Assembly (NCBI GenBank): GCA_964352425.1
Contig: CAYGRZ010000003.1
Coordinates: 21,077-85,076, forward strand
Source: an uncultured Planctomycetia bacterium
GTDB taxonomy: Bacteria; Omnitrophota; Gorgyraeia; 2-01-FULL-45-10
Reading direction: 5' to 3'
Length of the DNA: 64,000 nucleotides
Part shown: positions 1-64,000 of the stretch, piece after piece
Position numbering within the stretch: position 1 is the stretch's first letter
How the letters are laid out: the number at the start of each line of letters is the position of its first letter
Position numbers and translations under genes: made by a program
The notes under the pieces: generated by a model
Database searches by the model: none
What the model was told of the DNA's origin: nothing
Seen by the model: only the letters and a program-made list of their open reading frames with translations

Positions 1-668
1 CCGATAATAGGCGAAGCGATGCCGGCGATCTCCTTGGGCATTACGGTAACTTCGGCCGCTTTCTCAAAGATCGCAGGGTTCACCCCCATAGGAATACAGG
101 TAGTTCGAGAATTATAGGCTTTACAATATTCCACTAAATTTCTTGCCATGACAAATACTGCGTCCGCCTTCTGTAATACCTGTTTTTCATACGCGATTAT
201 TTTTTTAGCGGATCTTGAGGTTGCTGCAAAGTTGTCAGTGCAGTAGTAAATAAAAGCCTTGTGCGGTATGTTCTCTTGAATATCAAGCGCTATGGGTGTG
301 GGTATAAATGTCCATATGATAGGATTCTGAAACTGCATCACCTTGCCCCAGCGCTGCAGGGAACGTAAAATAAGAAAGCGGTTTATTATGCGCGCCAGTC
401 GTGAGTATGGGAACGGCAGGATAAGCGGGGAATATACATAAAGATTAGGCATCTCCTGACGAAAACCTTTTGTGCTTTTATGCCAATTGACGATCCTTTT
501 CCATATTCTCGAGGTATCGGAGAACCTGGGAGAGCGCACACCGGTGTTCTCGATGAACAATACACGGTTGCCGTTTTTGGCAAAGGCCGTCATGATTTCC
601 TGGTGCTGCTGCCAGATAAAATCCCAGTCAATACTTGATATGCATATAATATCTTCGCCTGTCAGCAT
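1..668 (-). CDS. Glycosyltransferase family 4 (GT-B), N-terminal part; the gene runs off the window start
   Basis: Not in the ORF track. Translating the minus strand from the ATG at 666..668 gives MLTGEDIICISSIDWDFIWQQHQEIMTAFAKNGNRVLFIENTGV..., a typical GT4 N-terminal domain. The frame stays open to position 1. Confidence 0.55.
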   Translation of the reverse strand, partial: MLTGEDIICISSIDWDFIWQQHQEIMTAFAKNGNRVLFIENTGVRSPRFSDTSRIWKRIVNWHKSTKGFRQEMPNLYVYSPLILPFPYSRLARIINRFLILRSLQRWGKVMQFQNPIIWTFIPTPIALDIQENIPHKAFIYYCTDNFAATSRSAKKIIAYEKQVLQKADAVFVMARNLVEYCKAYNSRTTCIPMGVNPAIFEKAAEVTVMPKEIAGIASPII

Positions 669-853
669 CTACTATTTTAACCCCCATATTACATACAACC
701 GGTCCGGACGACAAATCTCCAGCCCGGAACCGACAATCAGCCGGATTTTATATATTTCTTGTTGGATGCTATTATATTATTATATTAGCGTATATGCAAG
801 AGTATAAAAAGGCGGGAATAACAGGCATTAAGCAGGGCTATCGGAGGCCCTAA

Positions 854-2335
854 TTATTTAATAGGCGTCTTCGTCTTATTAAAATATGTCATGCAAAACC
901 TTAAAAAATATAATGGATTATGCAATAGCTTAAAAATGATCTTATCCAGGAACTTTTTCGGGTTTCTGACCAAATACAGGAAATATAATTTTAACTTTTC
1001 CCTAAGAACCAGGCCCATAAGTGTTTTTCGGGGCAGGCCCTTGGTTTCGAAGCTCGGATAATCGGACTTTAACCTTGCATAGTCAAGCCCATCATCGATC
1101 AATTTTAGCGATTTACAGGTTTCCAAAAGCCTTGTTCCCGGCAACGGTGTGGCATAGAAAAAATTTGTGGTATCAAGCTGCAGATTTTCAGCGAATCTGA
1201 AGGTATTTTTTAACGACTTCCTGGTTTCTCCCGGAAGACCGACTACAAAAAATCCCGAGGTTTCTAGCCCCAACGTTTTCGATTTATCAATGATCGGTTT
1301 TATCTGAGAAAGTTCGATAGGTTTTTTTATAACGTTCTTTAGCATATATTCATCGCCGGACTCTATACCTATGCTTATTGCATAGCAGCCGCTCTTCTTC
1401 ATCAGATCAAGCATCTGGCCATCAAGAGTCTGCACAGCTACGCCATTCGGCACATTCCATAATATGTTAAACTCTTTTGCGATAATACCCGAAAAAATTC
1501 TCTTTGCCCTGTCTCCGTCTAAAGTCAAATTATCGTCTTCAAATAATATCTCCTTAACCCCGAATCGCTTCATAAGATACTCGATTTCCATTAAGACGTT
1601 TTCGGCTGATCTTTTTCTGTAATTTCTTCCCCAAACATTATGGATTGAACAAAAAATGCATTCAAACGGGCACCCGCGCGATGTTATAAGCGGCAGAAAA
1701 GGCACTTTTCTTGCAGGGCTCCCATGAGGGTTGTTGATCTTGAAATATTTTTCAAGAGGGAATATGTCCCAATATGGAAATTCTATGCCGTCAAGGTTTT
1801 CGATTGGGATCCTTTTCCTGGTTATTACGGCTGTTCCGTTTTTTCTGAAACCTATTCCATCAACCTTATCTAGATCTGATCTATTTTCTACAACATCTGC
1901 AAGCTCGACAAGCGTCCTCTCCCCCTCACCGATAACGACATAATCAGTATCATTATCAGCAAGGACCCTTTTTGGCTCAGCGGAAGGATGCGCGCCTCCC
2001 AAGACTGTTATAATGCCCCTGCTTATACTTTTAGCTGCACTGCAAACTTTATACACATTTTCAGTTTGCGCAGAAAAAAGACATGAAACCCCGACCATAT
2101 CCGGTTTCAGATCATAAATTTTACGTTTAATTTCTTCGAATGTTGACCCAAACCTGATAAAGTCTTCATCCACCGGCTCTTCCTGATAAAAGCCTTCAGC
2201 CAATGCATCCATCACATGAACATCATGCTTTTTTCTAAGCGCCGATGCTAGATATGCCAATCCTAAAGGCGGATGGCATTTTTTTGTTTCTGTTTTATAG
2301 ATAGTATATGGCGGCTGAATTAAAAGGATCTTCAA
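854..2335 (-). CDS. B12-binding domain / radical SAM (class B) enzyme
   Basis: 493 aa. N-terminal cobalamin-binding-like domain (MKILLIQPPY...VLGGAHPS) and a CxxxCxxC radical SAM motif (RGCPFECIFCS). Confidence 0.8.
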   Translation of the reverse strand: MKILLIQPPYTIYKTETKKCHPPLGLAYLASALRKKHDVHVMDALAEGFYQEEPVDEDFIRFGSTFEEIKRKIYDLKPDMVGVSCLFSAQTENVYKVCSAAKSISRGIITVLGGAHPSAEPKRVLADNDTDYVVIGEGERTLVELADVVENRSDLDKVDGIGFRKNGTAVITRKRIPIENLDGIEFPYWDIFPLEKYFKINNPHGSPARKVPFLPLITSRGCPFECIFCSIHNVWGRNYRKRSAENVLMEIEYLMKRFGVKEILFEDDNLTLDGDRAKRIFSGIIAKEFNILWNVPNGVAVQTLDGQMLDLMKKSGCYAISIGIESGDEYMLKNVIKKPIELSQIKPIIDKSKTLGLETSGFFVVGLPGETRKSLKNTFRFAENLQLDTTNFFYATPLPGTRLLETCKSLKLIDDGLDYARLKSDYPSFETKGLPRKTLMGLVLREKLKLYFLYLVRNPKKFLDKIIFKLLHNPLYFLRFCMTYFNKTKTPIK

Positions 2336-2337
2336 TT

Positions 2338-3129
2338 CTATTTCTTTCTAAGTTCTGCCACGACAGTAAATCCGCACCATGTAAATGGGAACGTTTTGCC
2401 CCAATACTTTGAAATCAGGTAAGAAAGGAAGCCTAATGCTTTTTGCACCACACCAGGCATCCTGACTATCAGGCTTCCCGGCAAATAATATGACCCTATC
2501 GACTGCATTATTTCAGCATCAAAATGTTTCAGATAATCAATGAACTCAAAAGATGAATAAATATACTGATGCGTTGGATCCCAAGCATTCCATTTATAAT
2601 CTCTAACAAATGCCTCGATAATTTTGCCTTCCAGGCCTGCAAATGATATTTTATTCGGAGTTGATATATAAAGCCTTGCCCCCTTCCTGGAAATTCTCAA
2701 TAATTCACCGATAGCTTGTGTATGTTTTTCTTTTGGAAGATGCTCTAAGACTTCAAAGGCTATTACTGTATCAAAATATGCATCTTTAAAAGGCAGCTTA
2801 TAAATATCGGAGCATAAGTAATGTATTTTCGCAGATAAGTCGTCATTTACCAATTTGGCGCCATTTAAGGAAAAGAGATCTTTATCGCAAAGAACTATTG
2901 TCGAGGATCTCTCCGCATAGGTCTTTTCCAATAAGCCTATATTGCTGCCGATATCGATAGTGGCACCAAGAGTCTTGTTCTTATTTAAAATATCACTGTA
3001 AAGTTTAAATCTATATTTGTCGAAAGGACTTTCATTGAACCTGGCCTTCATCTCTTCAACATAGCTTAGGAGATCCGCATTATTATGCGAATCGCGTATT
3101 CGCTCCTCATTTTGTTTTGAGCTATGCAT
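2338..3129 (-). CDS. Class I SAM-dependent methyltransferase
   Basis: 263 aa with the Rossmann motif I-like IDIGSNIGLL and acidic motif II VIAFEVLEHL. It sits 3 nt downstream of the radical SAM gene. Confidence 0.65.
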   Translation of the reverse strand: MHSSKQNEERIRDSHNNADLLSYVEEMKARFNESPFDKYRFKLYSDILNKNKTLGATIDIGSNIGLLEKTYAERSSTIVLCDKDLFSLNGAKLVNDDLSAKIHYLCSDIYKLPFKDAYFDTVIAFEVLEHLPKEKHTQAIGELLRISRKGARLYISTPNKISFAGLEGKIIEAFVRDYKWNAWDPTHQYIYSSFEFIDYLKHFDAEIMQSIGSYYLPGSLIVRMPGVVQKALGFLSYLISKYWGKTFPFTWCGFTVVAELRKK

Positions 3130-3130
3130 G

Positions 3131-4438
3131 TCAGTACGACTCTTTTTCTACTAAATTACTTATATTCGAAGCCACGCCCTCCTCTATGCTAATGGAGGTC
3201 GCCTTAGACCTTTTAAATGACACAAAAAGCCACGCGACCACCACCGCTTCGCAAAAAAGGGTAGATAAAACCGCACCGTTAATGCCTAACCTTGGTATCA
3301 TAAAGCAATTCAAAATTACATTGCCGACAATCCCTAGAAGGTATATTTTGCAAATCAAAAATTGTTTTCTCAGCGCAAATAGCAATCTTTCGAATACAGG
3401 CTTTATGAAAAAAGGGGCCAGGAGCAGGGAAAGTGTCGCTAAATACTTACTCGCATCGTCAAATTTTGCCCCATAAACAACCCTGATAATATCGCTCCCC
3501 TTAGCATATATGGCCGCTATGAACAAAAAGCTTATCAGGACTAAAGTTAACACGGATCTTTTTATTAAGACATCAATACTATTTATAGAATCGGATAGTT
3601 TAGAAAAGACCGGGAAAAAAACTGCAGATAAAGTTACGGGAATCAAGAAAAGCTGTTCCAGAAGCTTGAAGTCCGCGCTAAACCAACCGGCCGCCATATC
3701 CCCTTTTATCAAAGTTAACATCATTATATCGATTCTAAAATTCAGAAAACCTAAAATATATATCAAGATCAACGGCGAGGAAGCCCTGAGAAGACGTCTC
3801 CATAATCCATAATCTATCGAAAACGAAATAACTTTAACATTATGTAAAAAAGCAAACAGGCTTGTTAAGCAATTAATAAAGCTGGCAACGAGCAATCCGA
3901 CAGCAATGAATACGGGCCCATGGATATTAAGATTCGTTTTGGTTATAGAGAATATGATCCCCAATTTTATAATAGACTCCAAGATCATCAGCATTCCTTC
4001 GTAGTGCATTGTTTCGTTTACCCGAAAAATATACCTGAAAAAATACATAAATGAATCTGATATTACAGAAATGCCTAAAATAAGAATTATCCAGAATTTG
4101 CCTGAACTCAATGACGTCAATTTAGCCAAAACAATAATAACTAAAATATTGGCTATGGCTAACAATACTTTTAGCGTAACAATATTATTTATGTATTTAT
4201 GAAGGAATCCCCTATTATGAGAAACGTCTCGAAGAAAGATATCAGTCAGGCCAAAATCGGCTAAAAATAGAAATACCCAGACAAAAGAAAGACAATACGA
4301 AAGTTCGCCAAAGCCGTCTACACCTAAAAATCTCGCTATCAAAATCATTACGAAAAGATTGATTATTTTAAATATCGCCTGCGAAAATATCAGGCTGGAG
4401 AAATTCGTAAATATTTTATGTATTTGTTCTTTAGTCAT
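3131..4438 (-). CDS. Polysaccharide biosynthesis protein / Wzx-type oligosaccharide flippase (MOP superfamily)
   Basis: 435 aa, about 12 hydrophobic helices, N-terminus typical of the Wzx/PST family (FKIINLFVMILIARFLGVDGFG). Confidence 0.6.
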   Translation of the reverse strand: MTKEQIHKIFTNFSSLIFSQAIFKIINLFVMILIARFLGVDGFGELSYCLSFVWVFLFLADFGLTDIFLRDVSHNRGFLHKYINNIVTLKVLLAIANILVIIVLAKLTSLSSGKFWIILILGISVISDSFMYFFRYIFRVNETMHYEGMLMILESIIKLGIIFSITKTNLNIHGPVFIAVGLLVASFINCLTSLFAFLHNVKVISFSIDYGLWRRLLRASSPLILIYILGFLNFRIDIMMLTLIKGDMAAGWFSADFKLLEQLFLIPVTLSAVFFPVFSKLSDSINSIDVLIKRSVLTLVLISFLFIAAIYAKGSDIIRVVYGAKFDDASKYLATLSLLLAPFFIKPVFERLLFALRKQFLICKIYLLGIVGNVILNCFMIPRLGINGAVLSTLFCEAVVVAWLFVSFKRSKATSISIEEGVASNISNLVEKESY

Positions 4439-5544
4439 TTTGACCCGGTTATTTTATCTTTGTCTGCGCTACTTAAAAGTTGTTCGGTGATAGTATTATA
4501 AATTACATTGGCAAAAATTGCGTGGGCGGCCTTATTAGGGTGTTCGTTTTCAGGATAAATGATCAAGTCGCCCGTATCTAACCCTTTATATAAGTCCGAT
4601 GGGTAGGTATTTACAAAATAATAGCCGTATTTTTTACACTCGGATCGCACGGTGTCCTGAAAGTCCTTATGGAAGTTCCGGGCGTGAATCGAGAACATCT
4701 TGCGAACCAACACGATGACAACCCGCACGTTTTTATCTTTGATGCTGCCTCTTATTTCGTTGAAATAGCCGGATATTTTTTTATCGCTGAACCTGGAAAG
4801 ACCCGACCCGCTGCCTGATGCATAGCTCGTCTTGTAACGGACAAGATAGTTTTTAGCATTATCCCTTAGAACTGTTAATGAATTGAGGATAAAGGAATTG
4901 GCATAAATGTTGTTGTATATTCTTTGCAAAAGGCCGGGCTTCTCAGAGCTTTCGATGAGGCTATTCTTGTTGAATGCCTCATCAGAAATAGGGAAAAAAT
5001 TCGAAGTGAGCCCAATAAGAACGACGTCAGGAGCATAGTCATTACATGCTTTCCCAAGCCGCTTAATAAGGGACTTGTTAAAGCTATCACCCGCTACTGC
5101 AAAGTTAATAACTTCAATAGTATTTATTCCTAAGCGAGAATCATCCCTTAAAAATTCATTCAATCGTTTTTCAAGGACGCTGACATAGTTATCTTTCTGA
5201 TAAACACCCGTTCCCATCGTAAAAGATTCCCCGAAACAAGCGACTCGCCATACACCGGGCTTCTTTTTCTTCTCACAATCTTGCGACTGCCAGAGTCCGT
5301 CCGCGTTAGTTCTATAGGGCTTACCGTATAAATATCCTTCTTTATCAGGCAAGAGCGCAATAAGCCCATTATCGTTAATATACGAGATTTTTTTAAGCCC
5401 GGCCGCCGGAGAATATTTCACTAAATCCAGCCCCTTGAGCCCGAAAATGTGCAGCCGAAAATACGCCTCGCCAAATAGTAAAAGAGCGAGGTTTAACCCG
5501 AAAAAAAGGAGCACAAAGAAGATGGGTCTATTTTTATTTAGCAT
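4435..5544 (-). CDS. SGNH/GDSL-like hydrolase-fold protein, probable O-acetylation partner of the MBOAT (AlgJ/AlgX/DltD-like)
   Basis: 369 aa. N-terminal TM anchor and a GDS-like block VACFGESFTMGTG. It overlaps the stop of the downstream MBOAT gene by 4 nt. Confidence 0.4.
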   Translation of the reverse strand: MLNKNRPIFFVLLFFGLNLALLLFGEAYFRLHIFGLKGLDLVKYSPAAGLKKISYINDNGLIALLPDKEGYLYGKPYRTNADGLWQSQDCEKKKKPGVWRVACFGESFTMGTGVYQKDNYVSVLEKRLNEFLRDDSRLGINTIEVINFAVAGDSFNKSLIKRLGKACNDYAPDVVLIGLTSNFFPISDEAFNKNSLIESSEKPGLLQRIYNNIYANSFILNSLTVLRDNAKNYLVRYKTSYASGSGSGLSRFSDKKISGYFNEIRGSIKDKNVRVVIVLVRKMFSIHARNFHKDFQDTVRSECKKYGYYFVNTYPSDLYKGLDTGDLIIYPENEHPNKAAHAIFANVIYNTITEQLLSSADKDKITGSK

Positions 5545-5546
5545 GT

Positions 5547-6995
5547 TTAGAATTTGAAATATATAAATTTTTGATCTACAGGAAGACTGTAAATTCCGCC
5601 GAAGATCAGTGAATAGGCAATAAAATATACGATAACCGTGCCGACAAGCACTTTTCCCCTCACGCTAAGCATCTGCAGCACCTCTAAGTCATTACGCCTA
5701 TATTGGAGATACTCCACAGCAAATATGACCAGAGAAAGGAAAACAAACAGGGAGAATTGTCTGCCTGATATGAAATTTGACAAAGAGATATTGCCGATTA
5801 AAGCCGTCAGCATGCTCCCGATCTGACTGAAAGAATTTGCCTTGAAGAGAAGCCAGCCCGCGCAGACAAGGTGGAAAAAGAATATGATGCGCAGCCACTT
5901 CCATATCTTCCCGGCAAAAATATTTTTTGGGGACGGTACGCGCGCAAGGACCGGCTCGATTATTTTATGTATGCATAGTAAAAGACCATGGTAGGCACCC
6001 CAGATGATAAATGTCCACGCAGCGCCGTGCCAGAGCCCGCCCAGAAGCATCGTAACGAAAAGGTTGCGATATGTCATCGCCCCCCCTTTTCTGTTCCCGC
6101 CCAGAGGAATATACAGGTAATCTCTGAGCCAGGTTGACAGGCTGATATGCCATCTATGCCAAAAATCGCGCGGGTTGGTAACAAAGTAGGGCAGGTTGAA
6201 ATTGACCATTATATCGAATCCCATGCACCTGCCCAATCCCATGGCGATCTGAGAATATCCGTTAAAATCACAATATATCTGTACTGTGAACGCATATATG
6301 GCCAGAAGGATCTTGGCCCCGTCGTAAGGAGGCGCCGCAGAAAAAACGGGATCGACTATTCCCGCCAAATTGTCGGCAATGAATACCTTTAGGAACAATC
6401 CCCAAAGGATCAGAAATGCTCCTCCATATACCTTGGCTAATGTTATTCTCCGGGGTGATTGTACTTGAGGCAGCAGATGTGCGCCTCTTTCGATGGGTCC
6501 TGCTATAAGCAACGGAAAAAAGGAGACGAGCAGAGCATAATCTACCAGACTTTTTACCGGAACGAGCTTCTTCCTGTAAACGTCGATTGTATAGCTCATC
6601 GTTTTAAAAGTATAAAACGATATCCCGACGGGAAGAATGATGTGCAATAAGTTAATATTGACTCTGAGTCCCAGGCTCTGCAGAAACATTTGAAAATTAG
6701 AAGCAAAAAAATTGAAATATTTAAAAAATCCCAGAATGGAAAGGTTGATGAATATGCTGATCAATAAAAAACGTTTTCTTCGCACCGCATCATCGGATGC
6801 GCATATCTTCTGGCTGCAAATAAAATCGGTTATGATGGAGGTGAACATCAAAAACAAGAACCTGTAATCCCAGCTGCCATAAAAAACACAGCTTGCCGCA
6901 AGGAGCAGCCTGTTCTGCCATTTGTGGCCCAACACAAGATACAGGCCGTAAACGATTACGAAGAATATCCCGAATTGCAAGCTGTTGAATAACAT
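5547..6995 (-). CDS. MBOAT family membrane-bound O-acyltransferase (AlgI/DltB-like)
   Basis: 482 aa, multi-TM, with the hallmark MBOAT motif FWHRWHISLSTWLRDYLYIPLGGNRKG and its catalytic His. Confidence 0.8.
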   Translation of the reverse strand: MLFNSLQFGIFFVIVYGLYLVLGHKWQNRLLLAASCVFYGSWDYRFLFLMFTSIITDFICSQKICASDDAVRRKRFLLISIFINLSILGFFKYFNFFASNFQMFLQSLGLRVNINLLHIILPVGISFYTFKTMSYTIDVYRKKLVPVKSLVDYALLVSFFPLLIAGPIERGAHLLPQVQSPRRITLAKVYGGAFLILWGLFLKVFIADNLAGIVDPVFSAAPPYDGAKILLAIYAFTVQIYCDFNGYSQIAMGLGRCMGFDIMVNFNLPYFVTNPRDFWHRWHISLSTWLRDYLYIPLGGNRKGGAMTYRNLFVTMLLGGLWHGAAWTFIIWGAYHGLLLCIHKIIEPVLARVPSPKNIFAGKIWKWLRIIFFFHLVCAGWLLFKANSFSQIGSMLTALIGNISLSNFISGRQFSLFVFLSLVIFAVEYLQYRRNDLEVLQMLSVRGKVLVGTVIVYFIAYSLIFGGIYSLPVDQKFIYFKF

Positions 6996-7018
6996 AGATA
7001 CCGGTTCCTGTTAATAGG

Positions 7019-7897
7019 CTATGCTTTAATCCTATTCGAATCATGGATTCTTTTAAGCTGGTCGTTTAATAACCCCAAACAAAAGATGGGCATAAAGCTT
7101 GCGACACATATCGCGGAGATGAGCCAAAGCCAGGCATGTTTGAAAAATATGCCATTGAGCACAAAAAGCAATATGCCGAATACGGCGTTGGCTGTCGCTA
7201 ATAATAAGAACAGTTTTATCGGATTATAGAATAATATCATCTCCACGATCATTTGAGCAGCTCTTAGAGTATCCCTAAAATGCCTTATCTTCGACTTCCC
7301 CACACGCTTCAGATATGTTATGGGGACGTATTTAATATAATGGTTGTTCAGAAAGAAAATCAGCGTTAGGGATGTGGTGAACGAAAAGCCCGTGCATAAT
7401 GAGCTGCCCAGGGGCATAACTATGCTTTTTTTAAATATTCTGAAGCCTGAATTCACATCCGCTATTTTCCTGCCGCACGCGTACTCCGCAAGGCGATTGA
7501 ACATAAAACGAGCCGGGTTTTTGAAAATGCCCTTCTTGTACTCTTTTCCGGTCCTGGCGCCGACGATCATGTCATACTGGGGATAATATTCCTTCAGACG
7601 CTTAATCTCGTTCGCCGGATAAGAGCCATCCCCATCCATGATGAGGATGCATTCGTGCTTTGATGCTGCTATCCCATCGTAAAGCGATCGTCCATACCCT
7701 AAATTTTCCACATGATTTATTATCCGGACATTCTTCATATCAGCCCGCTTAAGAACATCGATCGTATTATCCGTGGAACCGTCATTCACCACTATAATTT
7801 CATATTCTTTATAAACACTAAGCTCTTTCGCGATACTGCCCAAGACGGAGGGAAGTCCCTCCGCTTCGTTATATGCTGGAATTATGACACTTATCAT
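7019..7897 (-). CDS. Glycosyltransferase family 2 (Dpm1/GtrB-like polyprenyl-phosphate sugar transferase)
   Basis: 292 aa. MISVIIPAYNEAEGL...VVNDGSTDNT, a DxD-type GT-A N-terminal domain, plus two C-terminal TM helices. Confidence 0.75.
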   Translation of the reverse strand: MISVIIPAYNEAEGLPSVLGSIAKELSVYKEYEIIVVNDGSTDNTIDVLKRADMKNVRIINHVENLGYGRSLYDGIAASKHECILIMDGDGSYPANEIKRLKEYYPQYDMIVGARTGKEYKKGIFKNPARFMFNRLAEYACGRKIADVNSGFRIFKKSIVMPLGSSLCTGFSFTTSLTLIFFLNNHYIKYVPITYLKRVGKSKIRHFRDTLRAAQMIVEMILFYNPIKLFLLLATANAVFGILLFVLNGIFFKHAWLWLISAICVASFMPIFCLGLLNDQLKRIHDSNRIKA

Positions 7898-7918
7898 GAG
7901 ATGACCTCCCGGGTTATT

Positions 7919-9322: not shown

Positions 9323-9327
9323 TTTTG

Positions 9328-46346: not shown

Positions 46347-46351
46347 AAGTG

Positions 46352-52498: not shown

Positions 52499-52537
52499 AT
52501 CGCCCTCTATTGTAACATACCCACTACGACCGCGTAA

Positions 52538-53380: not shown

Positions 53381-53385
53381 ATATG

Positions 53386-55937: not shown

Positions 55938-55945
55938 AGGCAGGT

Positions 55946-57202
55946 TTAATGTTTGTTGATGACCACGCCGGAAATCGGCTTCGGGTAAAAGTACGTCGCC
56001 TTCCTCGGCATCTTCTCGCCCAGCCTCGCGATCCGCTTGACCTCCGCGACCTTCGTCGGGTTGAGAAAAAAGGCGCACGTGAACTTCCCCGTATCGACAG
56101 AAGAGGCCGCCTCCCGCGGGCTCTTGACAAATTCGATATTATCGTCGTCGTCGGCTATCCCCAAGACATGCTGAAATATAAAGAGATGGAGTATCGACAC
56201 GTCGAGCCTCCTCCAGGCCTTCGGCTTGTGCCTGATCGCCGCATCGACCGCTTTTATGTCTTTCAATATGAGGACATAGAACCCGCCTTTTCCGAGACAC
56301 ATACCGAACGCGTGCTTATCGCGCAGCCTGCCCAGCTTCGCCATCACGGCTTTTACGCCTGAGGCCTTCTCGATCCGGAACCATTTTTCGAGGCGGCTCC
56401 TGATCTCCTCTTTCGTAAGGCCTCCCGTATCGATGACGAGCCTGTGCGCGGGAAGGACGGTGAGCATCTTCTCGTTCGATTCGACAAAATATACCATCAC
56501 GTATTTCGAGCCCTCGCCGGGGGCCTCGCGCGAATACATCCGGGAGACCTCGAAACGGTGGTGGCCGTCGGCGATGAACGTGTCCTTGCTCGCCATCAGG
56601 CGCGCCACCTTCCTGATATCGGCCTCGGCGTCCATCCTCCAGGCCCTGTTCCTGGCCCCTTCGAAGACGACATCGATGAAAGGCCTCTTCCGGGCGGCCG
56701 TTTTTTTGAGCATGCCGAGGATCGCGTGGGAGGCGTCATCGTAGAGGACAAATATCGGGCTTAAGTTCGCCTTCACCTCGCGCATCAGGTTGAGCCGGTC
56801 GGTCTTCGGCGCCAGAAGCGTGTTCTCGTGCGGGAGGACCGACTTACCCTTCGGTTCAACTTCCATCAGACCGATGAACCCTATCCGCTCGACGTCCTTA
56901 CCGCCGGCCTTGTATTTCTGGGAATAGACGTATATCGCCGGCTTTCCGTCCTGTACCATCACGCCGCTCTTCAGCCACGCGTCGAACAGTTTCCCGGCGC
57001 GCGTGTACCTGTTGTCGCGGGCATTATCGGACTGAGTTTTCTTGTTCAGCTCGATCCTCACAAAATTATACGGGCTTGCGCGGTAGAGCCGGTCCTGCAT
57101 ATTCTTCGGGATGATATCGTAGGGCGGGGCGACGACGGGTGCCAGGTTCTTTATCTTTTTTTGGTTATACACTACTCCTTTGAACGGCCTTATCTGCGGC
57201 AA
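55946..57202 (-). CDS. DUF1015 domain-containing protein
   Basis: 418 aa. The N-terminus MPQIRPFKGVVYNQ...VAPPYDIIP matches the conserved DUF1015 opening. Confidence 0.6.
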   Translation of the reverse strand: MPQIRPFKGVVYNQKKIKNLAPVVAPPYDIIPKNMQDRLYRASPYNFVRIELNKKTQSDNARDNRYTRAGKLFDAWLKSGVMVQDGKPAIYVYSQKYKAGGKDVERIGFIGLMEVEPKGKSVLPHENTLLAPKTDRLNLMREVKANLSPIFVLYDDASHAILGMLKKTAARKRPFIDVVFEGARNRAWRMDAEADIRKVARLMASKDTFIADGHHRFEVSRMYSREAPGEGSKYVMVYFVESNEKMLTVLPAHRLVIDTGGLTKEEIRSRLEKWFRIEKASGVKAVMAKLGRLRDKHAFGMCLGKGGFYVLILKDIKAVDAAIRHKPKAWRRLDVSILHLFIFQHVLGIADDDDNIEFVKSPREAASSVDTGKFTCAFFLNPTKVAEVKRIARLGEKMPRKATYFYPKPISGVVINKH

Positions 57203-57204
57203 GG

Positions 57205-57612
57205 CTACCCCCTTCTCCCTTTGCTGTCACCGATGTAAAGAAATATGCCCGCAAGCGAGCCGGCGCAATCTGCGAGATAATCGAAGAGGTCGCACGACCT
57301 GCCCGGGACTGCGCGCTGATACAATTCATCAATGGCGCCGTAGCACAATGCTATGATTATAGCCAAAATCGATAATTTTGCAAGACCGACGTTAAAATCG
57401 CTCTTGTTGATCACGAGCGCAGCCGAGTGATCAAAGGCTCTGATCAGCAAAACACCGAGGACAAAGTACTCGACCAGGTGGAAGATCTTGTCGGCGTGGG
57501 GTATCCCTACACTCGGCAGGTCCTGGCCCGGGGTCGCGGAGAAATTGTGTATGACGAGGACCCAGGCGATGAGCGGCACCCAGAATATGAGTATCGTCCT
57601 TAAGGGCCTCAC
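57205..57612 (-). CDS. VanZ family membrane protein
   Basis: 135 aa, 4 TM helices, and a VanZ-like motif HADKIFHLVEYFVLG. Confidence 0.55.
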   Translation of the reverse strand: MRPLRTILIFWVPLIAWVLVIHNFSATPGQDLPSVGIPHADKIFHLVEYFVLGVLLIRAFDHSAALVINKSDFNVGLAKLSILAIIIALCYGAIDELYQRAVPGRSCDLFDYLADCAGSLAGIFLYIGDSKGRRG

Positions 57613-57875
57613 GCGCTGTCTTTGCTCTTCGGACAGCCCTTGCAGCCGTCGCTTTTGGAACCCGGGCAGGAATCGCCCGATGCGGGAGGCGACTTCTTCT
57701 TATAATCGGTCTCGTAGAAACCGCTGCCTTTGAAAATGATCCCGCCGCCCGAGCCTATCAGGCGGTGCACGGTGCCGCCGCACTTCGGGCAGGCTTTAAG
57801 CAGCTCGTCTGTCATCTTCTGGAATTGTTCGAACCGGTCGCCGCATGTATCGCACTGGTAGTCGTAGGTGGGCAT
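57609..57875 (-). CDS. FmdB family zinc-ribbon protein
   Basis: 88 aa. MPTYDYQCDTCGDRFE...CPKCGG is a canonical FmdB putative regulatory zinc ribbon. Confidence 0.7.
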   Translation of the reverse strand: MPTYDYQCDTCGDRFEQFQKMTDELLKACPKCGGTVHRLIGSGGGIIFKGSGFYETDYKKKSPPASGDSCPGSKSDGCKGCPKSKDSA

Positions 57876-57905
57876 GTTGTTCTCCTTGCGGACTATTGAC
57901 TAACA

Positions 57906-59072
57906 CTACCGAAACATCCTTCGCATCTTCTCCAGAAATGATCTCGCAAGCGGCCCCGACCCTTCGCCGGATACCCTGGCAAACTCTTTCAGTGTGCGCT
58001 TCTGCTCCGCCGTCAGGTCCGTGGGGACATCGACCTGGACCTTGACGAGCTGGTCGCCCCTGCCCGTATCGTGCAGATGGGTAATACCTTTGTTCCTCAG
58101 CCTGAAGGTCCTGCCGCCCTGCGTACCCGACGGTATCTTCATCATGATCTTGCCTTCGATCGTCGGCACCTCGATCTCGCCGCCGAAGACGGCCGTCGCA
58201 AAACTTATCGGCACTTCGCAGTATATATCGGCGTCGTGCCGCTCGAATATCTCGTGGGCCCTCACGTATATCAGGATGTAAAGGTCTCCGCGCCGGGCGC
58301 CGCGCTCGCCGGCCTCTCCCTCGCCGTGGATCCTGAGCCGCGAGCCCGAATCGACGCCCGCGGGGATCTTCACCTTGATGTTGCGCTTCGTCTTGACCCG
58401 CCCCCTGCCGCCGCACCCGGGGCACGGCGTCTTTACTACCGTCCCTTCGCCGCCGCACGTCCCGCACGTCTGGATCAGGTTGAAGAACCCGCTCGACGCG
58501 CTCACCTGCCCGCGGCCGCCGCAGTCCGGGCAACGCTCGCGCTTTGAGCCTGCCTTCGCGCCCGTGCCGCCGCACTGCTCGCACGTCTCGTAACGCGGTA
58601 TCGATATCGTCTTCTCGGTGCCGAACGCGGCGTCCTCAAAGCTTATCTCCATTTGGAACTCGAGGTCCGAGCCGCGCCGGCCCCCCGCGCGCCGGCCGCT
58701 GCCATAGGACTCGCCGAAAATATCCCCGCCTACGCCGAACCCCCTGAAGAGGTCGCTTACGTCGATCCCGCCGAATATGTCTTTAAGGTCATCGAAGTGG
58801 TGGAAGTCCTGCCAGCTGAACCCGCCCTGCTTAAACTGGTTCTCGACGCCGGCGTGGCCGTACTGGTCGTAGTTCTGGCGCTTCTGCGGGTCGATCAGGA
58901 CCTCATACGCCTCGGACATCTCCTTGAACTTCTCCTCCGCCTCTTTCTTCTTATCGGCGGAGACCCTGTCAGGATGGTATTTGAGCGCAAGGTTCCGGTA
59001 GGCTTTCTTCACCCCGTCGGCGCCCGCGGTCTTCGCAATGCCGAGGACCTCGTAATAGTCGCGTTTTGACAT
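57906..59072 (-). CDS. dnaJ: Molecular chaperone DnaJ
   Basis: 388 aa. J-domain (YYEVLGI...YHPDR), G/F region and four CxxCxGxG repeats. 1-nt stop/start overlap with dnaK. Confidence 0.9.
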   Translation of the reverse strand: MSKRDYYEVLGIAKTAGADGVKKAYRNLALKYHPDRVSADKKKEAEEKFKEMSEAYEVLIDPQKRQNYDQYGHAGVENQFKQGGFSWQDFHHFDDLKDIFGGIDVSDLFRGFGVGGDIFGESYGSGRRAGGRRGSDLEFQMEISFEDAAFGTEKTISIPRYETCEQCGGTGAKAGSKRERCPDCGGRGQVSASSGFFNLIQTCGTCGGEGTVVKTPCPGCGGRGRVKTKRNIKVKIPAGVDSGSRLRIHGEGEAGERGARRGDLYILIYVRAHEIFERHDADIYCEVPISFATAVFGGEIEVPTIEGKIMMKIPSGTQGGRTFRLRNKGITHLHDTGRGDQLVKVQVDVPTDLTAEQKRTLKEFARVSGEGSGPLARSFLEKMRRMFR

Positions 59073-61009
59073 TATTTCTTCTTTTTCTTTCCGTCCTCAT
59101 CCTCGGCCGTATACTCAGCGTCGATGATATCCTCTTTCTTGCCGCCGGCTGCCTGCTGTTCGGGCCCTGCCTCTTCGCGCGGCCCTTCCTGCCGCGCTCC
59201 CGCCCCGGGCGGCGCCCCGGCCTTCGAATCGCCGGCTGTCTTTTTGTAGATCTCTTCGGCGAGCTTGTGCGACACCTTGGTAAGCTCATCCATGCCGCGC
59301 TTGACGCTGGCGATATTCTTATCCTTCATCGCCTGCTTCAGGTCGTTGATCCTCGACTCTATTTCAGCCCGCTCGCCCTGGCCGACCTTCTCGCCGAACT
59401 CCTTGAGCGATTTTTCGGTCGCGTAGACCAGCGAATCCGCCTGGTTTATCGTCTCGATCTCTTCCTTCTTCTTCGTGTCCTCGGTCGCGAACTTCTCGGC
59501 CTCCTTGACCATCTTGTTTATCTCTTCCTTCGACAGTTTTCTCGGAGCCGTTATCTTTATCGACTGCTCTTTTCCGGTGCCGAGATCCTTGGCGGAGACG
59601 TGGACGATGCCGTTGACGTCTATGTCGAACGTCACCTCCACCTGCGGGACGCCTCTCGAGGCCGGCGGTATGCCGATCAGGTCGAACCTGCCCAGCTCCA
59701 CGTTGCCTTCGGCATCCGCCATCGGGCGCTCGCCCTGGATAACGCGGATCGTGACCGCCGTCTGGTTATCGGCCGCCGTCGAGAATATCTGGCTCTTTCT
59801 CGTCGGGACCGTCGTATTCCTCTCTATCAGTTTCGTATCGACACCGCCGAGCGTCTCTATGCCGAGCGAGAGCGGCGTGACGTCGAGAAGGAGCACTTCT
59901 TTGGTCTCGCCCTTCATGATCGCCGCCTGTATCGCGGCGCCGAGTGCCACGCATTCCATCGGGTCGACGCCGCGCTCTATCTTCTTCCCGACGTAATCTT
60001 CGACGAACTTCTGGACGATCGGCATTCTCGTGGGGCCGCCGACCAGGATCACCTTATCCACGTTCTTGGCCGCGATCTTCGCGTCAGAGAGCGCTTGCTC
60101 GATGGGCCCGCGACAGCGGTCGATGATCGGCCCGATCAGCTCTTCGAGCTTCGAGCGGTTGAGCGACATCGTGAGATGCTTCGGCCCCGTCTGGTCAGCC
60201 GTTATGAACGGGAGGTTCATGTCGGTCGAGAGGGTGCTCGAAAGCTCCACCTTCGCCTTCTCCGCCGCCTCGCGTATGCGCTGCATCGCCATCTTGTCGT
60301 TCTTCAGGTCTATGCCGGTATCCCTCTTGAACTCCTTGGCGATGTAGTCGACGAGCGTGTTATCCATGTCGGTGCCGCCGAGCTGCGTATCGCCCGAGGT
60401 CGACATTACCTCAAACGTCGCCGCCTTATGCTCGTCGTCCCATCCCATCTCGAGTATTGTGACGTCAAGCGTACCGCCGCCGAAGTCGAAGACCATTATC
60501 TTCTGTTCCTTGCCGGCCTTGTCAAGCCCGTATGCCAGGCACGCGGCCGTCGGCTCGTTGATGATCCTTAAGACCTTTAAGCCCGCTATCTCGCCGGCGT
60601 CTTTCGTGGCCTGCCGCTGGTTGTCGTTGAAATACGCCGGGCACGTGATGACGGCCTCGTCGATCTTGTCGCCCAGGTACGCCTCGGCATCCTGCTTTAT
60701 CTTCTGCAGGATAAACGCCGAGATCTGCTGCGGCGTGTACTCTTTCCCGTATACCTTATATGTATGGTCGGTGCCCATCTTTCTCTTTGCCGCGAAGATC
60801 GTGCCCTCGGGATTTATCGAGGCCTGCCTCTTCGCCGGCTCACCGACGAGCCGAGTGCCGTCCTTCGTGAACGCGACAAACGACGGGAACGCCTTGCCGC
60901 TGGCGACCCCGGCGCCCTCTGCCGACGGTATGATGACCGGCCGGCCCGCTTCCATGTACGCCGCGGCGGAATTTGATGTCCCTAAATCAATACCTATGAC
61001 CTTAGCCAT
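59072..61009 (-). CDS. dnaK: Molecular chaperone DnaK (Hsp70)
   Basis: I placed the start at ATG 61007..61009 ([14 protein letters not shown]), preceded by SD AAGGAGG at 61016..61022. Canonical Hsp70 motifs throughout. Confidence 0.95.
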
Positions 61010-61022
61010 ACTTAACCTCCTT

Positions 61023-61199
61023 TGTAAAATGTTAAATGTCAAAGCACAAATGACAATTGAAGTCCAAAGATCAAAGTCCTCAGTTCAAAATTAAAGTTTA
61101 GAGTCAAAAGTTTTAAACTTTGGACTGTCACTTTGAACTTTGACTTTTGAACTTTGAACTTGCTTTGTCATTCGAATTTTGTCATTTGTCATTCTGTCT
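61023..61199 (-). repeat. AT-rich intergenic region with dense short repeats (TTCAAAGT / TGTCATT families) between grpE and dnaK
   Basis: On the plus strand: ...tttgaactttgacttttgaactttgaacttgc... and tgtcattcgaattttgtcatttgtcattctgtc. About 35% GC versus about 60% GC in the flanking genes. Confidence 0.5.
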
Positions 61200-61754
61200 T
61201 TAAGGCCTCTTTACTATCCTCACCATCGCCGGCCTGAGAAGCCTCCCGTTAAACCTGTAGCCGGGCTTCAGCTCCGCGACGATAAGCCCATCCTCCCCGT
61301 CTTTCGACTCCTCGGTCTCGATCGCCTCATGCATGTGCGGGTCGAACTTCTCGCCGACCGCCTTGATCCGCTCCAGGCCGATGTCTTTCAGGAACTTCTG
61401 GATCTGGAGCTGTATCATGTCGACGCCTTCCTGCACCGCCTTGAAATCCTTGGCCTGGGCTATGTGCTTTTCGGCCATCTCCAGATTGTCGATGATCGGC
61501 AGGAATTCGATCAGAAGGCCTTCGTTGGCGTACCTGACAAAATCGGTCTTCTCTTTCTCCATGCGCTTGCGCACATTCTCGAACTCGGCGTGGGCCCGCA
61601 CAAACTGGTCGTAGTAACCGTCCCGCTCGTCAGCTTTCGCCTTGAGCGCGTCGTACTCCTGCAGCGGAAGCGTCACGGTCTCACCGGCGGGCTGCTGTGT
61701 GGCCTTCTCGTCCTTGCCGTTACCGCTATCGCTCTTATTGTTCTTATGGGGCAT
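61200..61754 (-). CDS. grpE: Nucleotide exchange factor GrpE
   Basis: 184 aa. The coiled-coil region and C-terminal beta domain (AEFENVRKRMEKEK, LKPGYRFNGRLLRPAMV) match GrpE. Confidence 0.85.
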   Translation of the reverse strand: MPHKNNKSDSGNGKDEKATQQPAGETVTLPLQEYDALKAKADERDGYYDQFVRAHAEFENVRKRMEKEKTDFVRYANEGLLIEFLPIIDNLEMAEKHIAQAKDFKAVQEGVDMIQLQIQKFLKDIGLERIKAVGEKFDPHMHEAIETEESKDGEDGLIVAELKPGYRFNGRLLRPAMVRIVKRP

Positions 61755-61756
61755 CG

Positions 61757-62497
61757 CTATTTGATCTCCAGTTCATCGAGTATGTGCGTCACGGTATCGG
61801 CCAAAAATTCAACGGCCGGGATGACCCTCTCATAGACCATCCTCTTCGGGCCGATCACGCCGAGCCTGCCGGAGACCTTTCCTTTCACCTTATAACCCTT
61901 CGTCACGACACTGCAGTCGGATAAGGAGCTCGTCACATTCTCCTTGCCGATGTGGATGGTAAGCTTATCGCTGTCGAAGTCGTGGCTCAGCAGGCTCAGG
62001 AGGTCGCGCTTCTGTTCGAGGCACCGCAGGAGGGCATGCAATTTCTTCAGGTCATGGAACTCGGGCTGCTCGACGATGTGGCTCGCCCCGTCGAGATAGA
62101 GCCGGTCGTACTGCGCGAACAGCGTCAGCCCGACATAGTTGGTCATGTCCGACATCAGATGCGTGGTGCGCTGCAGGACGTCTTCAAGGGATCGTACCGC
62201 GCAGGAATACTCGTCGTGGACCGACCTGGCAGAGCGCTCATTCAGGTGCTTTAGATGCATCAGTGAGTCGATGAAATAACGGTAGCCGCGGTCGGTAGGG
62301 ATCCTCCCCGCGGAGGTATGCGGCTGCGCGATCAGCCCCATGTCTTCGAGATCGGCCATGACATTACGGATCGTGGCGCTCGAAAGGTCGAGCTTGCGCG
62401 AGATATAACGCGAACCTACCGGCTCCGCCGTCTCGACGTAGTGGCGCACGATCATCCCGAGCACTTCCTGCTGCCGTGTATTGAGCTCTTTTAGCAT
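61757..62497 (-). CDS. hrcA: Heat-inducible transcription repressor HrcA (short form)
   Basis: 246 aa. N-terminal winged HTH LTERQQEVL...VETAEPVGSR and C-terminal ...GVIGPKRMVYERVIPAVEFL match HrcA. Confidence 0.8.
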   Translation of the reverse strand: MLKELNTRQQEVLGMIVRHYVETAEPVGSRYISRKLDLSSATIRNVMADLEDMGLIAQPHTSAGRIPTDRGYRYFIDSLMHLKHLNERSARSVHDEYSCAVRSLEDVLQRTTHLMSDMTNYVGLTLFAQYDRLYLDGASHIVEQPEFHDLKKLHALLRCLEQKRDLLSLLSHDFDSDKLTIHIGKENVTSSLSDCSVVTKGYKVKGKVSGRLGVIGPKRMVYERVIPAVEFLADTVTHILDELEIK

Positions 62498-62519
62498 CGC
62501 AACCCTCTTCTTGCCTCTA

Positions 62520-62546
62520 TTGGCACTCTACATATTTGAGTGCTAA
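62520..62546 (-). promoter_or_regulatory. CIRCE operator (HrcA binding site) upstream of hrcA
   Basis: tTGGCACTC-tacatattt-GAGTGCTAA is a 9-N9-9 inverted repeat matching the CIRCE consensus TTAGCACTC-N9-GAGTGCTAA. It lies 23 nt upstream of the hrcA start. Confidence 0.7.
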
Positions 62547-63039
62547 TTGTCAAGGAAATTGTGAAATTTTTACTCGATTCTCAGGGCGGCGCCTACTTTT
62601 GTGCTTGCCTTCCGCTTGTTCGGCTTTACTTAAGGGCGTTTACTTTCGGAAGGTGCCTTCGCTTGCCGCTCACTTCGATTAGGCATCTCGTTCGCTGTCG
62701 CTGCGGCACGCATCCGAAAGTTCCGCCACTCTATGAAAGCCGAACAATCTTCGGCTACTTCTTGGATGGCGGCACGTATGCACGCCGCCCGCATCCCACC
62801 AAGCCCGGAGGCCTGGGTGCTAAAGCGGGGCCTAAAAATTGCGAGCGGGCATGGATCCGCCGAAGCCAATCTCTCACCTACACATGCAACGGCGAAGGCG
62901 GAGAGCGAGCAATTTTTCCGGAGTGTGGGTTTCCACGCCGGGGAGAACCACACGTCCCCGCGAGGCGCCCAGGCCGCAAGGGCTTGCTCAACAAGCGAAG
63001 GCGACAGCACAAGTGCCGCCTTACTCGAGAGCTAAATAC

Positions 63040-64000
63040 TTACACGCTCTTCTCGAGCATCTCTTTGAGGCGGAGCGGGACTTCGGCTTCGATATAGAGC
63101 CAGTCGCCCTCATACTCCTGCCTGCGGATAAAGCCGTTCTCGTGGATAAGATTGAGCGTCCTGGCGTCACCGGCGGGTATCTTGATAGTGATGATGGCCG
63201 TCGTGCCCTCCATGTGGCGCAGGATGCGCGCTATCAGCGTGTCGAACCCCTGCCTCTTGAGCGCCGATATCGCTATCGCGTCATTGAAATGGCCTTTGAG
63301 GCGCTCGACCGCTTCGCCCGCCTGGACCTTATCTATCTTGTTCAACGCGGTGATCACCGGCTTGTCGCTGGCGCCTATCTGGCCGAGCACGTCAAAGACG
63401 GCCGAGGCCTGCTCGAGGGCCTTCGGGTGGCTCGCGTCGACCAGGTGCAGGAGCACGTCCGCCTCGACGACCTCCTCGAGCGTCGCCTTGAACGCCTCGA
63501 CGAGGTGGTGCGGCAGCTCCTTGATAAACCCGACCGTATCGACGAAGAGGACCTTCTGGTTGTTTGGCATTACGAACTTTCTCACGGTCGGGTCGAGCGT
63601 CGCAAACAGCTTGTCACGGACGATGACGTCCGAATCGGTAAGCGCGTTTAAGAGCGTCGACTTGCCGACGTTCGTATACCCGATCAGAGCGACCGTAAGG
63701 ACTGAAAAACGCGACCGCTTCTTGCGCATCATCGCGCGGCGGCCTTCGAGGTCCCGGAGGCCCTTCTTCAGGAGCGTTATCCTGTCGCGTATACGGCGCC
63801 TGTCGACCTCGAGCTTCTGTTCCCCGGGGCCGCTCGTCCCGATGCCGCCGCCCGGCCTCGACATCATCACGCCCTTGCCGGTCAGCCGCGGCAGCAGGTA
63901 GCTGAGCTGTGCAAGCTCCACCTGCAGCTTGCCTTCATTTGAATGGGCGCGCCGCGCGAAGATTTGAAGGATGAGCTGCGTCCTGTCGACCGTCTTGACG
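63040..64000 (-). CDS. hflX: GTPase HflX (3' portion; the gene continues beyond the window end)
   Basis: G1 motif [15 protein letters not shown] and G3 DTVGF. Translating the minus strand to the window edge gives ...[34 protein letters not shown] with no stop. The track's start at 63921 is an internal GTG. Confidence 0.8.

Follow-up and report, generated by a model that had tools for sequence, protein, structure and literature searches.

The rfb gene clusters of Salmonella are composed of segments of differing guanine-plus-cytosine (GC) content, all of which lie below the genome average (PMC3715488, Reeves and co-workers). The rml genes grade from the flank to the centre, and wzx, wzy and the glycosyltransferase genes have 28–37% GC in a genome of 51–52%, which was explained by transfer from lower-GC sources at different times (PMC3715488). 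In the Omnitrophota, an O-antigen/capsule-type cassette of ~26 kb comprising O-antigen ligase, AlgI-type (MBOAT) acyltransferases and glycosyltransferases was reported from a chromosome and an episome, with 70–86% nucleotide identity and conserved gene order (bioRxiv 10.64898/2026.05.20.726742). UDP-glucose/nucleoside diphosphate (NDP)-sugar dehydrogenases are listed as a class of intein host proteins (PMC2874743). The present analysis concerns a 64,000-nucleotide stretch (referred to as the window) of contig CAYGRZ010000003.1 from the metagenome-assembled genome (MAG) of an uncultured member of the Omnitrophota. The window contains part of a Wzx/Wzy-type surface-heteropolysaccharide locus (O-antigen-, capsule- or exopolysaccharide-like) located beside a syntenic housekeeping block. 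Distal to a spacer at 36.7–36.9 kb, this locus is composed of gene modules, at least four or five in number, that differ in their history, and module exchange is considered the probable explanation of the variable glycan locus.

The whole 64-kb window has a GC content of 50.4%, with 1-kb intervals ranging from 34% to 63%; the variance among these intervals amounts to 15.4 times the binomial expectation, and 26 out of 46 intervals within 1–46 kb lie more than two standard deviations under the core mean. An earlier note on this DNA, made by eye, had described a sharp alternation of GC-poor and GC-rich blocks. The heterogeneity is real and far above chance; its shape, however, is not a two-state switching but a graded trough with three sharper embedded dips (19.7–23.2 kb, 33.6–35.7 kb and a 1,464-bp intein). 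All credible genes locate on the minus strand, and their GC content at third codon positions (GC3) extends from 0.375 to 0.844. Recursive likelihood-ratio segmentation of the third codon positions, with a permutation test per split (200 permutations), yielded nine segments (Table 1), every split beating all 200 permutations. The segmentation is validated by the intein, since the borders of the latter as read from the protein (39371–40834) were recovered with deviations of 10–36 nt; among the six change points unrelated to the intein, four are no more than 110 nt away from the end of a gene (p about 0.03). Across the glycan locus, GC3 descends in tiers from 0.74 (35.7–46.2 kb) via 0.64, 0.60 and 0.49 to 0.40 (0.85–4.5 kb), and goes back up past the left edge of the window (contig L002).

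Two of the blocks that the earlier note had regarded as GC-poor were confirmed, i.e. 1–13000 (41.9%; 500-bp intervals 31.6–49.4%) and the intein (40.9%). A third, assigned to 19700–21400 (44.7%), is indeed low in GC and reaches as far as 23247 through a methyltransferase and an SDR gene, while in the fourth (33600–36700) the gene for a GNAT protein and the gene for a protein without assigned family (designated X) are low, but the Gfo/Idh/MocA gene is not (52.9% GC, GC3 0.70). The range of 58–68% GC given for the two rich blocks did not hold: 50.5% was measured for 22000–33000 (500-bp maximum 56.6%) and 56.5% for 42000–64000 (45–68%). Housekeeping genes do form a GC-rich core, the native level of which is about 57–58% GC (GC3 0.81; 18 kb of core sequence as reference) rather than the proposed ~60%; the lptD gene counted among them is LptD-like by sub-threshold matches alone.

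In GC content, codon usage and oligonucleotide signature the locus departs from the host core. Relative to the core, Karlin codon bias amounts to 0.18–0.31 for core genes (leave-one-out values), 0.24–0.42 for proximal glycan genes, 0.31–0.57 for most of the middle tier, 0.62–0.76 for the two embedded dips of the locus and 0.65–0.92 for 854–13769; neither uniform GC nor core-like codon usage of the poor segments, which would contradict a mosaic, was found. Dinucleotide relative-abundance distances normalised for base composition (delta*) to the own core are compiled in Table 1 and compare with at most 65–119 for equal-size chunks of the core itself. The 1–4.5 kb region displays delta* values of 39–53 to the low-GC contigs L049 (39), L045 and L005; by this measure, the block richest in AT resembles DNA of low-GC Omnitrophota. 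Tetranucleotides correlate with those of the core at 0.45–0.56 within 1–12 kb and at 0.88–0.94 within 36–64 kb. An effect of protein family is excluded, because paralogues of the same family differ by tier: GC3 is 0.41, 0.49 and 0.70 in three B12-radical S-adenosylmethionine (SAM) enzymes, 0.40 and 0.59 in two Wzx flippases, and 0.52 and 0.65 in two GT2 glycosyltransferases. The amino-acid bias of membrane proteins was likewise rejected as cause of the low GC, since the tiers also appear in GC3 and in soluble paralogues. At first codon positions, GC (GC1) in the two lowest tiers is 0.41–0.46 versus 0.556, and the FYMINK fraction there is 0.35 versus 0.29, which argues for long residence in AT-richer genomes.

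Gene order in relatives delimits the inherited part of the locus. The LptD-like protein matched 36 genome loci, the closest of which (L004, a Tibetan MAG) shares 77% amino acid identity. Past the LptD-like gene, L004, L005 and L006 continue into ugd and rml genes, and L004 and L006 remain collinear on through the NDP-sugar dehydrogenase and both SDR genes, ending at window position 36909. Past 36909, L004 and L006 carry different genes each, none of the distal window genes being found at the same position, and L129 has three unrelated genes before a trio of Gfo/Idh/MocA, X and GNAT genes (Gfo-X-GNAT) occurs again. Because the gene content of L004 and L006 diverges directly past 36909, the spacer at 36690–36908 is regarded as the border between the inherited and the variable part. 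On its core-adjacent side, the order of ugd, rmlCABD, NDP-sugar dehydrogenase and two SDR genes recurs in L004, L006 and L129 at 58–87% amino acid identity, with a GC3 of 0.74 (35676–46237, minus the intein and including the adjacent Gfo gene; single genes 0.69–0.79) and a native delta* (35700–46350, minus the intein). This end of the locus is vertically inherited and compositionally native.

Beyond the spacer, three modules (designated M1, M2 and M4) are collinear with three different outside contigs, which together with the stop of synteny bears out the cassette-wise mosaic proposed earlier. M1 corresponds gene for gene to contig L131 (55% GC, GC3 0.66–0.81) at 47–87% amino acid identity. 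M2 shares carbamoyltransferase, GT2 and deacetylase in the same order with L047 (48% GC) at 81, 68 and 55% identity, and has counterparts in L045 (uniform 36.5% GC) in the order WecB, SDR, methyltransferase, GT2 and carbamoyltransferase at 53, 50, 59, 49 and 74%, the carbamoyltransferase exceeding the 49–59% of its neighbours. The order of M4 recurs in L049 (360 kb, uniform 39% GC) at 41, 46, 43 and 61% amino acid identity. In M3, located between M2 and M4, GC3 drops across the module, starting at about 0.6 and reaching 0.45. For the radical-SAM enzyme encoded at the trough bottom, a homologue is located on L132 (39% GC), and many named homologues of this enzyme from Omnitrophica are fused methyltransferase-radical-SAM proteins (~768 aa), equivalent to the adjacent pair 2338–3129 and 854–2335 of the window. 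Overall, the checked contigs with the closest homologues of distal genes have 36–48% GC, and 54–61% in the case of M1 and the X-GNAT pair.

The dip formed by the latter pair is bounded by sharp steps 24–41 nt from gene ends (p=8e-8 on the side of the Gfo gene). L129, L131 and L133 have the Gfo-X-GNAT trio as well, with a GC3 of 0.61–0.79 in X and GNAT. The closest known homologues of X (70, 63 and 62% identity) are those in L129/L131/L133, and identities of X and GNAT to these copies (46–70%) are under those of the flanking genes. The recurrence of the trio in the three contigs also led to rejection of a de novo insertion of GNAT and X into a WbpB-WbpD operon. No relative of X was found in the PDB.

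The intein provides an internal positive control for mobile DNA in this locus, since it is an independent and certain case of mobile DNA with the same low GC. It interrupts the NDP-sugar dehydrogenase (38879–41647; subfamily model 448 bits, cut-off 190) at the catalytic-Cys motif (GGH/CLGKDE...VLTHN/CIPVDP, slashes denoting the splice junctions). All splicing residues are present (Cys1, C-terminal His-Asn, +1 Cys), and the extein motif is uninterrupted after removal. The intein matches TIGR01445 intein_Nterm (34.1 bits, cut-off 24.5) and PF14890, and contains a predicted endonuclease domain (PF14528 LAGLIDADG_3, 32.2 bits, cut-off 22.5). Its GC3 is 0.477, versus 0.786 and 0.785 in the exteins on either side. 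Orthologues in six Omnitrophota loci (L004, L006, L016, L020, L023 and L029) are free of inteins. The top representatives of 50%-identity clusters are mostly 860–940 aa long and match the intein at about residues 260–340, corresponding to the insertion site in the window; among relatives of ~900 aa scanned with Pfam, all five of five are NDP-sugar dehydrogenases with an intein at about the same position. The best match is P0361 (922 aa), whose intein occupies the same residues with 78% identity, and no exact-match record was found for the intein-containing protein.

From the observed composition tiers, assembly continuity, synteny break and collinearity of modules with different outside contigs, we infer direction, timing and mechanism of transfer as follows. 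Recombination anchored in conserved genes and at conserved junctions between modules would have exchanged existing modules or brought in additional ones, from DNA with a history in lower-GC genomes, mainly of other Omnitrophota. Because of this history, the imports would have kept the codon usage, amino-acid bias and dinucleotide signature of their source. The graded GC3 would then reflect different arrival times or different sources, with the Wzx/Wzy centre being the most foreign part.

Several points weigh against module exchange from AT-richer sources. The native GC level rests on only 18 kb of core sequence, and the taxon names of relatives are those deposited with the MAGs. For no module was a donor above 61–81% amino acid identity found, nor is any transfer dated or directed. 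Pfam scans of the window ORFs (open reading frames) revealed no integrase, transposase or mobility domain, and neither tRNA genes or Rfam families nor a pair of flanking direct repeats was found in the window. Glycan loci changing by recombination in their flanks usually lack such hallmarks of mobility. The AT-richer donors proposed in the earlier note agree with the resemblance of the low blocks to lower-GC Omnitrophota, but not with the X-GNAT pair, the nearest homologues of which belong to 54–61% GC contigs with the same gene order and thus do not demonstrate an AT-rich donor. The X-GNAT dip could represent allelic replacement from an unsampled lower-GC lineage, or local in-situ change. In addition, the carbamoyltransferase of L047 displays a similar small dip (GC3 0.57 versus 0.62–0.65), so that the dip at 19.7–23.2 kb may travel with the module rather than indicate an event of its own.

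The composition of relatives bears on a different reading. At the same core genes, GC3 is 0.77–0.83 in the window versus 0.42–0.70 in most relatives and 0.26–0.32 in L022. Across eight aligned core genes (46352–59072), GC at first, second (GC2) and third codon positions is 0.544/0.375/0.816 in the window and 0.517/0.354/0.555 in L004 at 77% amino acid identity, corresponding to a big lineage-specific synonymous GC shift inside the Omnitrophota with nearly equal GC1 and GC2. Within its phylum, the lineage of the window occupies the GC-rich end; contigs of similar GC exist (L129 from Omnitrophica, 54%; L131, 55%; L133, 61%), L131 and L133 being metagenome contigs with the gene order of the window. 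The "low" GC of the cassettes is thus no more than what is usual elsewhere in the Omnitrophota. A Muto-Osawa-type argument of a core out of equilibrium was set aside, as the compared relatives share the same proteins and their GC1 and GC2 are constrained.

It is against this background that the low-GC genes might be viewed as long-term residents, the GC of which never rose or fell back in place: the force raising GC3 (biased gene conversion or codon selection) would be weak in a hypervariable, recombination-poor and presumably weakly expressed centre, where AT-biased mutation would dominate. The smooth shape of the trough, which has its centre at Wzx/Wzy and rises on both sides, the position of the lineage at the top of GC3 in the phylum (with L004 as close as described above), the X and GNAT genes with the same neighbours as in high-GC relatives yet more divergent and lower in GC3, and the lack of mobility genes in the window are in line with long residence. 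However, L004 and L006 hold different genes at this site, so that the distal genes are not ancestral here, and L129 has its trio after three unrelated genes; moreover, the shift extends beyond synonymous sites to GC1 and amino-acid composition, GC3 steps of 0.15–0.2 sit at gene ends, the dinucleotide signature of 1–4.5 kb is far nearer to low-GC Omnitrophota than to the host core, and weakly expressed core genes such as those for GGDEF proteins still have a GC3 of 0.81. Long residence is unlikely, albeit the least so of the alternatives. A related and doubtful proposal considers the trough the footprint of a fast lineage-specific synonymous GC rise by recombination-linked biased gene conversion, from which the recombination-cold, non-homologous centre would escape. 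If this were true, low GC in surface-polysaccharide loci would partly map local recombination rate and not donor identity.

Module exchange as proposed here draws mainly on Omnitrophota; cassettes from unrelated AT-rich phyla outside Omnitrophota, which the earlier note would imply if taken literally, are quite improbable. Some genes do point elsewhere: the best named matches of the carbamoyltransferase are from Acidobacteriota (58%) and Aureabacteria (53%), with copies in the Omnitrophota loci L016 and L023 at 43–44%, named homologues of X include Anaerolineae (59%), Cloacimonetes and Nitrospinota, and the intein resembles archaeal inteins (NCBIfam). The closest matches overall, however, are metagenome contigs with Omnitrophota-style neighbours and order, nine out of 13 named top matches of the radical-SAM enzyme in the trough are from Omnitrophica or Omnitrophota, and whole sub-modules are shared with L129 (Omnitrophica) and L049 (probably Omnitrophica).

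Continuity of the sequence was examined with independent Logan contigs assembled from runs ERR3804373 and ERR3804374 and found by exact-protein look-up. These contigs are 99.98–100% identical to the window and cover 1–16574 (plus 4.45 kb past the left edge), 16583–30242, 30015–38667, 41096–46828 and 55688–60644, thereby crossing the steps at 4.5, 13, 20.2, 23.4, 33.5 and 35.7 kb as well as the core-locus junction. Within the locus, two stretches are outside the contigs: 16575–16582 (8 nt), located inside a PMT_2 ORF (15913–17415) that aligns over 480 of 500 residues to a single homologue in L045, and 38668–41095, bridged by the gene order kept in L004, L006 and L129 and by the matching GC3 of the exteins. 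A metagenome mis-assembly joining high-GC and low-GC populations, conceivable in view of the metagenomic source, existing strain variants and these two stretches, is very unlikely, because the independent assemblies of two runs reproduce the main junctions and steps, both gaps are bridged and the change is graded without a single junction. The variants concern contig L042 (ERR3804373), which differs from window 44839–47503 at 14 of 2665 nt, compared with at most one position in the other independent contigs; these differences suggest that strain variants co-exist in the region of ugd and the LptD-like gene.

Table 1 Features, GC3 segments and dinucleotide distances in the window
Feature	Position (nt)	Strand	Composition or distance	Basis
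GT4-DUF218 gene (618 aa; 5' part in window, runs off the edge)	1–668	-		
Trough bottom: GDSL acylhydrolase, Wzx flippase, methyltransferase, B12-radical-SAM enzyme	854–5544	-	GC3 0.375–0.465; Wzx 36.0% GC	Pfam
Module M4, in order: Wzy-like polymerase, B12-radical-SAM enzyme, GT2, MBOAT	5547–10698	-	GC3 0.47–0.53	Pfam
Module M3: two PMT_2-like membrane glycosyltransferases, methyltransferase, GT4, DUF4330, two proteins without family	10835–17415	-		Pfam
Module M2: WecB 2-epimerase, SDR, methyltransferase, carbamoyltransferase, GT2, polysaccharide deacetylase, methyltransferase	17388–24338	-		Pfam, NCBIfam
Embedded dip: carbamoyltransferase, methyltransferase, SDR	19716–23247	-	GC3 0.47–0.53	p=5e-5, 5e-4 versus neighbours
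Module M1 (twelve genes): Gfo/Idh/MocA (3-dehydrogenase-like), X, GNAT, hexapeptide acetyltransferase, DegT, Wzx, GT4, methyltransferase, short DegT, methyltransferase, B12-radical-SAM enzyme, SDR	24338–36689	-	GC3 ~0.64–0.70 except X, GNAT	Pfam
Embedded dip: GNAT and X (336-aa protein without assigned family)	33624–35650	-	46.4% GC, GC3 0.50	
Boundary spacer (219 bp)	36690–36908	.		Synteny with relatives stops, variable region starts
Proximal glycan part: ugd, rmlC, rmlA, rmlB, rmlD, NDP-sugar dehydrogenase (with intein), two SDR epimerases/dehydratases	36909–46237	-		Pfam, NCBIfam
Intein (488 aa, 1,464 bp) with LAGLIDADG-type homing-endonuclease domain	39371–40834	-		Splice junctions and profiles
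Native core block: LptD-like outer-membrane protein (tentative), two GGDEF, ABC ATPase, AccD, B12-binding protein, AsnB, DUF1015, VanZ, Zn-ribbon proteins, DnaJ, DnaK, GrpE, HrcA, HflX-like GTPase	46352–63921	-	56.9% GC; GC3 0.81 without AsnB	Pfam
AsnB-like (asparagine-synthase-like) gene	54051–55937	-	GC3 dip within core, 0.642	
GC3 segment	854–4519		0.395	
GC3 segment	4522–12996		0.492	
GC3 segment	12999–20202		0.594	
GC3 segment	20205–23352		0.487	
GC3 segment	23355–33536		0.646	
GC3 segment	33539–35697		0.499	
GC3 segment	35700–39404		0.732	
GC3 segment	39407–40844		0.471	
GC3 segment	40847–63919		0.778	
delta* to own core	1–4.5 kb		175	
delta* to own core	4.5–13 kb		139	
delta* to own core	13–20.2 kb		107	
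delta* to own core	20.2–23.35 kb		146	
delta* to own core	23.35–33.5 kb		84	
delta* to own core	33.5–35.7 kb		133	
delta* to own core	35.7–46.35 kb, minus intein		23	

With respect to the type of locus, the glycan cluster extends over more than 45 kb in the window, and the locus over at least about 50 kb with the L002 extension. Two Wzx genes were identified by PF01943 (3131–4438, 82 bits; 30458–31957, 112 bits; cut-off 28.2). The Wzy candidate (9328–10698) scores 33.2 bits versus a cut-off of 31.7 with PF04932 (Wzy_C), a family that includes WaaL ligases, and has no NCBIfam match. No initiating transferase is encoded in the window; a Glycos_transf_4 gene (WecA/WbpL-type, 118.7 bits) is located on the independent contig L002 at 19937–20980, which is 3.4 kb past the left window edge. 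Genes past this edge have GC3 values of 0.475, 0.569, 0.675 and 0.635, the last belonging to the WecA-like gene, which is followed by a second Wzy_C gene. Precursor genes are present with rmlA/B/C/D, ugd, NDP-sugar dehydrogenase, wecB, two DegT and several SDRs, and glycosyltransferase genes with two GT2, GT4 genes and PMT_2-like genes. Pfam scans, which covered the 53 window ORFs with a length of 150 aa or more and the genes of the L002 extension, detected no Wzz, Wza or Wzc family; such a gene could lie elsewhere in the genome. The locus harbours three B12-radical-SAM enzymes (one in the 854–3129 pair, 7919–9496 and 25332–26723, all on the minus strand) and about seven SAM methyltransferases, a gene set which suggests C- or O-methylated sugars. 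Together with the carbamoyltransferase and the MBOAT/GDSL pair, the predicted functions point to a heavily methylated and acylated glycan. The short DegT gene in M1 (27460–28464) was considered as a frameshifted pseudogene and rejected as such, since L131 contains the same 333-aa form at 81% identity. Among the homologues of the carbamoyltransferase, a 900-aa protein from Nanoarchaeota (P0022) contains a LAGLIDADG domain and is probably another intein-bearing glycan enzyme.

The order of core genes (dnaJ, DUF1015, AsnB in some cases, B12-binding protein, accD, ABC ATPase, two GGDEF and LptD-like) is common to the Omnitrophota MAGs L004, L005, L006 and L030. The AsnB-like gene forms a GC3 dip (0.64 versus 0.77–0.78 in the flanks, chi-square p=2e-7; 0.45 at its 3' end). 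L005 and L006 have the gene at this site, and L004 and L030 lack it, so that recombination or re-acquisition of the gene is a possibility. The spacer between grpE and dnaK contains a TTTGAAC array of ~7 copies (61112–61161).

Several repeats occur in and around the proximal glycan genes. The boundary spacer contains a 23-nt tandem repeat of two copies (36726–36769). An 18-nt motif, ATTATWACTATCATGATA, is present exactly twice in the window (0.01 expected by chance), at 46270–46287 and 36684–36701 (both on the minus strand). The copy upstream of ugd reads as an extended -10-like element (TGATATAAT), and the other starts in the spacer and crosses the start called for Gfo, where the variable region begins. 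At corresponding sites in relatives the motif was not found, and the sole match beyond the window's own contigs is an unrelated site in L016. In rmlD, a CTAAGGG heptanucleotide array (41982–42059, minus strand; 11 copies with 78% matches) gives rise to an additional loop in the protein, AKGEGLRAKGEGLRAEGQELRAKG, most or all of which is missing from RmlD of L004, L006 and L129 (0–9 residues at this site). Slippage by 7 nt in this array would shift the reading frame, so that phase variation is conceivable. Between rmlC (stop at 44479) and rmlA (start at 44399), a spacer of 79 bp contains a perfect 26-nt hairpin (44420–44485), the upstream arm of which overlaps the end of rmlC, and two tandem 43-nt hairpin units (41677–41759) are located between rmlD and the dehydrogenase gene.

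In Pseudomonas aeruginosa, the WbpA/B/E/D/I pathway makes UDP-2,3-diacetamido-2,3-dideoxy-mannuronic acid. The window encodes matching families: an NDP-sugar 6-dehydrogenase (38879–41647), a Gfo/Idh/MocA 3-dehydrogenase-like protein (35676–36689), a DegT (31872–33002), a hexapeptide N-acetyltransferase (32999–33580) and a WecB-type 2-epimerase (23244–24338). Different from the Wbp set, X and GNAT are additionally present inside it, and the matches are at the family level and do not establish the sugar product. Against curated cut-offs, wecB (276.6 versus 210) and the NDP-sugar dehydrogenase pass, while the UDP-GlcNAc 3-dehydrogenase model yields 180 versus 450. Compared with known inteins of NDP-sugar dehydrogenases, the one described here has the same catalytic-Cys site, splicing residues and LAGLIDADG-type domain, with no essential difference.

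Omnitrophota are thought to be very small, possibly host-dependent cells. The locus has the architecture familiar from enterobacteria, with a conserved flank of sugar-precursor genes, a hypervariable modular centre and low GC at Wzx/Wzy, and suggests that diversification of surface glycans by module exchange is also at work in this phylum. It also serves as a warning that, in Omnitrophota MAGs, binning or screens for horizontal gene transfer that are based on composition will flag such loci or split them.

A hypervariable polysaccharide cassette is already known in Omnitrophota from the 2026 preprint (bioRxiv 10.64898/2026.05.20.726742), and the pattern observed here is an ordinary hallmark of module-swapping loci. 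In the episome case a co-sampled mobile element and coverage were available, whereas here neither such an element nor an integrase or episomal copy was seen and the evidence is compositional and comparative. Likeness to the enterobacterial rfb clusters (galactose-initiated set of Salmonella enterica) consists in conserved rml and further nucleotide-sugar genes located by housekeeping flanks, in a GC content that declines from flank to centre, and in its minimum at wzx, wzy and the glycosyltransferase genes, 15–23 points under the genome. The earlier note had called the pattern typical of serotype-determining loci but extreme; typical is upheld, extreme is not, because the offset of 14–22 GC points between this locus and its core equals that of Salmonella rfb in size (PMC3715488). 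Differences from rfb are the host, an uncultured member of the Omnitrophota with a core of 57% GC, the much larger size of the locus with two Wzx and at least two Wzy_C genes, and its unusual richness in methylating enzymes; in addition, neither Wzz nor gnd/galF-type flanks were seen, and a link to lipopolysaccharide is not shown. While no established concept is altered, the locus provides a clearly bounded case from an uncultured phylum about which little is known.

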